A stretch of DNA of 60,171 nucleotides, counting the filler, from Bipalium vagum (lineage: Eukaryota): assembly GCA_037834085.1 (NCBI GenBank). It is 3 parts of 3 records of this genome, joined end to end, with 100 filler letters (N's around TTAATTAATTAA, not from the genome) between each part and the next. Parts side by side here need not be neighbours in the genome. Positions count along the whole stretch, not along the records: positions 1 to 26,231 come from JBBMKC010155818.1; 2 more parts are not named here. One strand, given 5' to 3'. The notes under the pieces were generated by a model. It saw nothing but the letters and a program-made list of their open reading frames with translations, made no database searches and was not told the DNA's origin. Made by a program: the position numbers and the translations under genes. Shown piece by piece: positions 4,494 to 5,255 of the stretch (the first letter of the stretch is position 1; each line of letters opens with the position of its first letter).

Positions 4494-5255
4494 TTAGGTT
4501 GGTACATAGGTTCCCGCGTTTTTTTTATTGTAAAGTTTTTTTGTGAAAACCAACTATTATTTTATTAATATTATGTGTATGTGTATGTGGATCGAAGATG
4601 AAGGCTCCATAATAATAATATTATTATTATTTTGAGAATACATTGTCTTAGTGAAATTAAAGTTGAGAATGACTGAAAAATATGAAATGTGAAAGATTTT
4701 CCATATTTCAATAATGAAATGCAATTCCGGGAATTTTGCAACAGGTAGCGTGGCCGAGCGGTCTAAGGCGCTGGTTTAAGGCACCAGTTCGAAAGAGCGT
4801 GGGTTGTCACACTCTCCTGTCACACTCCTCGTTTGATTGGACATTAAGCAGTAGAGGTGAAAGTCAGTTGGCGCAAGGTCAGGAGAGTAAGGCCGATGTT
4901 GAAGAATCTCTCATTTGAGCTCTTGGAGGGATATTTTGCTTATATTCACTGTGTGTGGCCGTGTATTGTCATGAAGCAAAATGACATGACTGCGACGATC
5001 AGAACTTTTCAGTTGGATAGCTTTTTTCACTCTTTGCAACTGGGCTACATAGATTTCTTTGTTAATAGTCTTTTTTTCTCAAGTATTTCCAAGTGCACTA
5101 AACCCTCCCACATCCACAATACACATATCGTTGTTTTCTTGGGATGAAGTTCTTTTTTTTTCACTCTTGGCTTAGGCGTGACTCTTTCAGCTACCCACTA
5201 AAAATAGCAAGAATGACAAATTTTAAAAAGCGCGGGAACTTGTGCACCAACCTAA
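4494..5255 (-). mobile_element. Non-autonomous mariner element with both TIRs, carrying a tRNA fragment
   Basis: TIRs TTAGGTTGGTACATAGGTTCCCGCG and (rc) TTAGGTTGGTGCACAAGTTCCCGCG, with TA on both sides. Minus strand ~4820-5198 encodes ELHPKKTTICVLWMWEGLVHLEIL..IYVAQLQRVKKAI..VILLHDNTRPHT..QHRPYSPDLAPTDFHL, with a stop and frameshifts. Confidence 0.95.
4744..4805 (+). tRNA. tRNA-Leu(AAG), truncated in the T-loop (pseudo-tRNA)
   Basis: GGTAGCGTGGCCGAGCGGTCTAAGGCG (5' acceptor strand and D arm/A box), anticodon stem CTGGT/ACCAG with loop TT-AAG-GC, variable arm TC-GAAA-GA, then GCGTGGGTT. The expected CGAATCCCAC and the 3' acceptor strand are absent. Confidence 0.9.

Follow-up and report, generated by a model that had tools for sequence, protein, structure and literature searches.

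A tRNA-Leu(AAG) gene fragment in a decayed mariner element of Bipalium vagum, probably patched in from a high-copy repeat

Foreign DNA enclosed by the terminal inverted repeats (TIRs) of a DNA transposon is a known condition in animals, where 370 Pack-TIRs have been catalogued and where most of the single-copy ones were formed by gap filling independent of transposition (PMC8277862). Microhomology of 1-36 bp was recorded for 190 of 281 Pack-TIRs in the same study, the main text of which does not contain the word tRNA, and our search of the openly accessible literature yielded no report of a tRNA fragment in a mariner. tRNA-like sequences that form part of a longer high-copy unit, with a fixed sequence upstream, have been described for Helenus and TRIMp3 (Kojima 2024, PMC10886601), and uniform, high-copy tRNA gene units with microsatellite-like spacers build tandem arrays in Entamoeba (PMC2652664) and, as an array of 81 genes, in Arabidopsis (PMC2886086). 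Mariners themselves, such as Mos1, those of the Hsmar1/SETMAR kind and the deleted copies of Rhodnius (PMC4678618), are characterized by a TA target, TIRs of about 30 bp and a DD34D transposase. At the level of the repair footprint, templated inserts accompanied by single-base homology have been reported as the signature of polymerase theta at Tc1 breaks (PMC4490562).

In the window analysed here, that is, the whole stretch of 60,171 nucleotides from Bipalium vagum, we found a mariner-tRNA chimera of 762 bp (4494-5255), in which TA-flanked TIRs enclose a piece of decayed DD34D transposase and 62 nt of tRNA-Leu(AAG) (Table 1). It shares with the mariners above the TA target, the ~30-bp TIRs and the DD34D type of transposase, and differs from them in being short, in lacking residues 1-175 and 302-348 and in holding foreign DNA. 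As in the single-copy Pack-TIRs, this foreign DNA is enclosed by the two termini of a single TIR element, which lost a short stretch at the break, microhomology amounts to 1-2 bp, the capture was likely later than the insertion and there is apparently one copy. The difference lies in the captured DNA, which here comes from a high-copy unit, whereas the Pack-TIR pipeline required a unique parental hit; with a ratio of 2,645 between the depth of the captured flank and that of the neighbouring single-copy DNA, our locus has no unique best parent. The chimera works like a single-copy Pack-TIR and may or may not count as one in the strict sense, because the captured piece lacks a unique parent and could derive from another transposon.

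Table 1. Coordinates and supporting evidence for the parts of the chimera, in positions of the window
Feature	Position	Strand	Evidence
Left TA target duplication	4492..4493	.	sequence; sister copies part into other flanks at 4490-4492 (33 contigs)
Mariner 3' end: 3' TIR (4494-4524) and 3' untranslated subterminal part	4494..4573	-	12 X1 contigs
2-bp microhomology (TA) at the left junction	4572..4573	.	mariner contigs match to 4573, donor contig from 4572
Upstream flank (leader) of the high-copy tRNA-Leu unit	4574..4743	+	170 bp, 28% GC, X1 contig depth
5' 62 nt of the tRNA-Leu(AAG) gene, cut in the T loop	4744..4805	+	Rfam RF00005, arm pairing
12-nt filler	4806..4817	-	direct comparison with 4818-4830
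Decayed transposase fragment, residues 176-301 of P0001	4818..5197	-	tblastn, Pfam
Mariner 5' end: 5' TIR (5225-5255) and 26 bp of 5' UTR	5198..5255	-	5199-5224 equals the loose-end letters of X1
Right TA target duplication	5256..5257	.	sequence

Much of the anatomy was read by matching the region 4200-4739, which covers the left junction and most of the leader, left of the tRNA, against contigs of run X1. This run holds 0.67 of the sampled words and may be the assembly's own source; the best 8 of 211 matching pieces were listed. The TIRs start at 4494 and 5255 and mismatch at 3 of 25 nt or 4 of 31 nt, and no third copy resembling them was found in the window at up to 8 mismatches. By itself this pair is only moderately above chance, an inverted match of 24/28 having appeared in one of 20 block shuffles of the 3-kb region. 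That 4494 is a mariner end is nevertheless settled, because at least 33 X1 contigs carry the same end with other flanks. Both the ~25-bp TIRs with three mismatches and the TA sites, which an earlier note on this DNA had claimed, were thus borne out, by direct sequence comparison and by the sister ends.

Two deletions have shortened the element. At the 5' side, 17 X1 contigs leave at 4524 into 5' subterminal sequence, and since their first 26 letters equal window positions 5224-5199, the deletion is fixed 57 bp inside the element. There, part of the UTR is joined to codon 176, with a loss of about 600 bp, as estimated from the 175 missing codons and a share of the UTR. This loss of residues 1-175 and of most of the 5' UTR had been missed by the earlier note, whose anatomy was otherwise right in substance. 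At the 3' side, 12 X1 contigs run on behind 4573 and read, on the minus strand and by hand, D-Y-I-I-D-stop, which is the end of the family protein P0001, followed by 11 bases; 4494-4573 is therefore the mariner's own 3' end. The mariner sequence lost at the insert amounts to about 155 bp, namely residues 302-348 (47 codons), the stop and 11 nt. What remains of the termini, 80 bp at the 3' end and 57 bp at the 5' end, compares with the at least 10 bp asked of a Pack-TIR.

P0001 is the intact, 348-residue protein of the family, found by protein search on a contig of 1,266 bp. It is a DD34D mariner transposase (D161-D251-D286, with the 34-residue spacing), carries the WVPH and SPDLAPTD motifs and matches Mos1 with an E value of 2.8e-78. 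With a DD34D transposase bearing a YSPDL-type motif, a TA target and ~30-bp TIRs, the element has what defines a mariner. The fragment left in the window copy (126 of 348 codons, no intact ORF) matches P0001 with 71% and 81% identity (tblastn, E 2.7e-50) and Pfam Transposase_1 (PF01359) with 32.6 bits against a cut-off of 24. It keeps the second and third catalytic Asp, has lost the first Asp together with the DNA-binding domain, and is decayed by one stop, one frameshift and 16 differences from P0001 in 85 residues. A replaced C-terminus had been recognized before; its limit, placed right after YSPDLAPTDFHL, was not correct, as the homology runs 12 codons further, to residue 301 at 4818.

No relative of P0001 was found in viral contigs and one was found in metagenome contigs (L001, 146-1210), a mariner 60% identical to P0001 and too distant, which has a related TIR and ends before the 3' end. 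Seven other organisms (runs X2-X8) hold 0.09-0.10 of the sampled words, and two of these runs, X2 and X4, were compared with 4200-4739. In X4, a run from another organism, two contigs have almost the same mariner 5' end (window 4488-4525), and the presence of the family there would reflect either shared ancestry or horizontal transfer. X2, as well as X9 (RNA by guess), gave no cover on 4200-4739 and is uninformative either way.

The tRNA part is truncated and otherwise well formed. Its anticodon is AAG, the anticodon stem is paired at 5 of 5 positions, the D stem has 3 pairs and the variable arm is paired around a four-base loop; box A is whole and box B (GGTTC) is cut after GGTT. The Rfam tRNA model (RF00005) gives it 18.6 bits; the gathering score is 29, and the shortfall stems from the missing T arm and 3' acceptor strand. 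The match and the pairing of all arms checked uphold the previous description of 62 nt of near-canonical tRNA-Leu(AAG). Free folding of the fragment was no better than that of shuffles (z -0.48 and 0.10), which is not surprising in a truncated tRNA. With most of box B and the 3' half absent, the fragment would make no tRNA and likely has no working polymerase III promoter. No tRNA gene was called in the window by ARAGORN at default settings or by a whole-window Rfam scan; hits of a relaxed ARAGORN search, such as 20802-20892, are AT-rich, lack promoter boxes and were rejected as noise.

Together with its leader the fragment makes up an insert of 232 bp. The leader, which begins with a 6-bp microsatellite and contains a 22-bp AT palindrome (4609-4630), had been described as ~180 bp of unrelated AT-rich DNA; it is indeed foreign to the mariner, but it measures 170 bp (4574-4743) and is itself a repeat. 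Summed X1 contig depth reaches 8,568 at 4578-4595 and 43,239-60,041 at 4650-4721 (4603-4638 was skipped as repeat), compared with 22.7 in the flank and 3,035-6,968 at the mariner end. Such a depth should not be taken for a copy number: other organisms may contribute to it and, as short contigs overlap by 30 letters, the sum can be inflated up to 31-fold; with a correction for the overlap in a model of our own, the leader would be present in roughly 85-1,600 (1,641) copies. No variant was listed at 2% of the depth, variants near contig ends falling outside this listing. Since just 1% of the contig depth matched at the leader continues into dissimilar sequence, no boundary of the unit lies within 4574-4739. 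The leader is part of a uniform, high-copy unit containing a tRNA-Leu gene. The earlier note had derived it from a single genomic tRNA locus, with the reservation that it might belong to a repeat family of its own; being a high-copy repeat, it contradicts the first idea and falls in part under the reservation.

Regarding the identity of this donor, the Pack-TIR studies ask for a parental copy of at least 90% identity, and the leader is matched, without any variant listed, by many short X1 contigs, in a comparison that ends left of the tRNA part. The donor-unit contigs are less than 80 letters long where matched. One of them matches from 4572 and reaches 8 letters further left, where it shows more of the 6-bp microsatellite and begins with TG. 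A 26-base motif of the leader had no exact match in viral contigs or prokaryote genome contigs, and neither the leader nor the locus had a look-alike among the other windows of this genome compared. We give an even chance to a tRNA gene unit in many homogenised copies, for example in a tandem array; a miniature, tRNA-bearing retrotransposon that supplied its LTR is a possible but clearly lesser candidate, and another kind of repeat is less probable still. An array-type unit is more likely than an LTR or another repeat. The arrays of Entamoeba and Arabidopsis are tandem, whereas the donor is known here from uniform short contigs alone, in a host genome that is gene-poor and mariner-rich; two passages of the Dugesia genome preprint say nothing on tRNA numbers.

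The two junctions tell how the insert probably arrived. On the right, as read from the assembly sequence alone, one T is common to the tRNA end (after GGTT) and to a 13-nt stretch, in which the filler plus the shared base 4805 form an 11-nt tandem copy of the adjacent mariner end and a 2-nt stutter. At none of the boundaries tried is the insert flanked by a direct repeat of at least 4 bp, and a search for TG...CA pairs with a 4-6 bp duplication, combining left ends at 4560-4599 with right ends at 4800-4834, gave none. Because residues 302-348, the stop and 11 nt are missing and such a repeat is absent, the insert is best read as a replacement, not as an insertion. The pattern looks like a signature of break repair: microhomology at breakpoints, common in Pack-TIRs, is seen here as 2 bp on the left and 1 bp with filler on the right. 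Homologies of 1-2 bp would also be expected by chance in AT-rich DNA, and for this reason the filler and the lost 155 bp weigh more. Single-base homology and a short insert copied from beside the break are likewise features of the polymerase-theta footprints (PMC4490562), from which the chimera differs by its additional 232-bp insert from a distant template. Copying at the DNA level, rather than retroposition, had already been proposed and is the most likely route, given that 170 bp of upstream flank are included, that the tRNA is cut inside the T loop and that tail and target duplication are lacking.

The insert also appears to be younger than its surroundings. The seven sister ends listed from X1 differ from the window copy by 5-10 letters in 79-90, which, if the differences are shared equally, corresponds to a decay per copy of about 4-5% from the common ancestor; at this rate, zero changes in ~100 bp of leader have a probability of 0.017-0.006. 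Moreover, the filler carries the base that gives Ser where P0001 has Gly, so that it was likely copied after this change, an argument of one base that presumes P0001 to be ancestral. Since the mariner is worn (16 of 85 residues and the sister-end differences) and the leader has no listed variant, and with the Ser base in the filler, the capture likely took place well after the insertion, although the argument from age is weakened by variants near contig ends not being listed and by some records having been filtered out.

Based on these data, we consider with a probability of roughly 0.7 that the locus is an old, doubly deleted mariner, the ~155-bp tail of which was replaced by 232 bp from a repeated tRNA-Leu(AAG) unit through double-strand-break repair, likely long after decay had begun. 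This reading builds on the observed mariner anatomy, left junction, lost and gained lengths, filler, missing target duplication and leader depth. A mariner would have inserted at a TA, lost ~600 bp near its 5' end and decayed. Later, a break would have opened inside the dead element near its 3' end, and 2 bp at the left end may have paired with one of the many copies of the tRNA unit. DNA synthesis would then have run through the flank into the tRNA and halted in the T loop, and the ends would have been rejoined by a microhomology-mediated, polymerase-theta-like process that left the 11-nt copy of neighbouring mariner sequence. Polymerase theta as the enzyme involved is suggested by analogy.

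The alternative that survives best, although it is rather improbable, is that an integrase placed a Helenus-type solo LTR in the dead mariner and that deletions on either side trimmed it afterwards. The unit is indeed high in copy and its upstream flank is fixed, LTRs of up to 323 bp and more than 1,000 copies are known from Helenus (PMC10886601), and the donor contig extending further left begins with TG; these extra letters, however, fit a longer microsatellite equally well. The two deletions, one per side, are an additional requirement, and TG...CA ends bordered by a 4-6 bp target duplication are missing around the insert. Of the marks of a Helenus solo LTR, neither TG...CA ends with a 4-bp duplication nor box A kept together with box B is present, and the insert has no LTR ends, primer site or polypurine tract. 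Every arm checked in its tRNA part is canonical, with the cut lying in box B, whereas most tRNA parts of Helenus are not predicted to be functional (PMC10886601). A mobile LTR family would also sit uneasily with the absence of leader look-alikes among the other windows compared. In the text of Kojima (2024), the hosts of Helenus are six animal phyla, flatworms not among them. Helenus could still describe the donor.

Abortive gap repair following excision, at a time when the mariner family was active and with the copy remaining single, is less probable again. It was the origin favoured in the earlier note, and two internal deletions with intact ends are typical of such products in mariners (PMC4678618); an insert copied at the DNA level agrees with it too. 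Nevertheless, the insert looks far less decayed than the mariner around it, so that capture during transposition gives way to a capture that likely post-dates the decay of this copy, and most single-copy Pack-TIRs of animals arose without transposition (PMC8277862).

It is very improbable, in our view, that the tRNA fragment belongs to a non-autonomous mariner family mobilised in trans to several sites. Both TIRs and the TA sites are present, the intact ORF of P0001 exists and the X1 matches listed are the best 8 of 211, all of which would leave room for such a family. Against it, the match ends at 4570-4573 in all seven of the sister contigs listed that have other flanks, and the 12 contigs that continue behind 4573 do so as ordinary mariner. 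Among the matches listed for 4200-4739 in X1, the leader never occurs with another flank, and an other-flank contig running through the insert would have ranked among the longest. With none of the 12 loose-end contigs bearing cargo, the share of copies with the insert is below ~22%. No second copy of the chimera was found in the 60-kb window or among the other windows compared, the sister copies are 6-12% apart, which indicates an old family, and most deleted mariner copies do not amplify (PMC4678618). The mobilisable tRNA-bearing family once envisaged therefore gives way to an old, dead copy whose scar is probably unique and immobile.

Two further explanations are hardly credible. According to the first, a resident tRNA gene lay between two mariners of the same family that were fused by deletions, with nothing copied in. 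The window contains at least five mariner remnants, and deletion between head-to-tail copies has been described (PMC4678618), but two insertions and at least three deletions would be needed, both mariner parts belong to one element, in collinear order and separated by a gap of only ~155 bp, and the left flank is single-copy, which the leader is not. According to the second, three repeats were misassembled. Among the X1 matches listed, no contig crosses 4573 or bridges either inner junction, and the flank contig ends at 4521. Nevertheless, the junctions share just 2 and 1 bases, which is presumably not enough for a misjoin by overlap, the filler is new sequence, the flanking pieces stand in the right order and register for one mariner, and the nearest run of N is more than 20 kb away. 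A contig of depth 22.7 matches 4200-4521 with no difference over 322 bp, from which it follows that the left flank is single-copy and the outer left junction real in X1. A tRNA-derived SINE was rejected, as 170 bp of repeated DNA precede the tRNA head and there is neither tail nor target duplication, and a minus-strand retroposon with the 6-bp microsatellite as its tail was set aside as less likely, because the tRNA would be antisense and no duplication is present.

The surroundings of the chimera are AT-rich (15-35% GC in 2-kb bins). In a Pfam scan of 126 of the 227 stop-free frames of at least 48 aa, chosen by GC, no host gene was found in the window and only transposase exceeded the cut-off. 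Mariner remnants of other families lie at 1053-1327 (+), 24602-24997 (+), 33990-34586 (-) and 47100-47546 (-), with weaker matches near 43088-43168 (-) and 58299-58583 (+), and none of the remnants elsewhere in the window has TIRs like those of the 4494-5255 element. A 108-bp imperfect palindrome at 29584-29691, 73% self-complementary and beginning with TA, is probably a small MITE. Short diverged repeats at 28210-28290 and 31670-31753 (79%, inverted, 3.5 kb apart) could be the ends of an old element, and another diverged pair, in direct orientation, is found at 18633-18728 and 32786-32879 (74%). Runs of N, five in all with 334 bases, among them 26232-26331, 30266-30423 and 43365-43464, are far from the chimera and represent scaffold gaps or masking.

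The chimera is real, explained by known processes and fairly ordinary. It encodes neither transposase nor tRNA, and illustrates cleanly and on a small scale how a dead DNA transposon can be patched with DNA from the host or from a repeat, which has been catalogued in animals before. More useful as a lead, and perhaps of greater interest than the chimera, is the donor, a uniform tRNA-Leu(AAG) unit whose copies number between about a hundred and more than 1,000. Should it prove to be an array, tRNA gene arrays would gain an animal example. A mobile element with an intact tRNA gene would instead bear on whether such elements add working tRNA genes, a point raised for Helenus-type elements (PMC10886601). 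There is a small chance that the donor is a young mobile element, for instance a Helenus-type miniature LTR element, spreading a canonical and possibly working tRNA-Leu(AAG) to hundreds of sites, with the chimera as a by-product that happened to sample it. In that event, a transposon, and not tandem duplication, would set the tRNA gene dosage.
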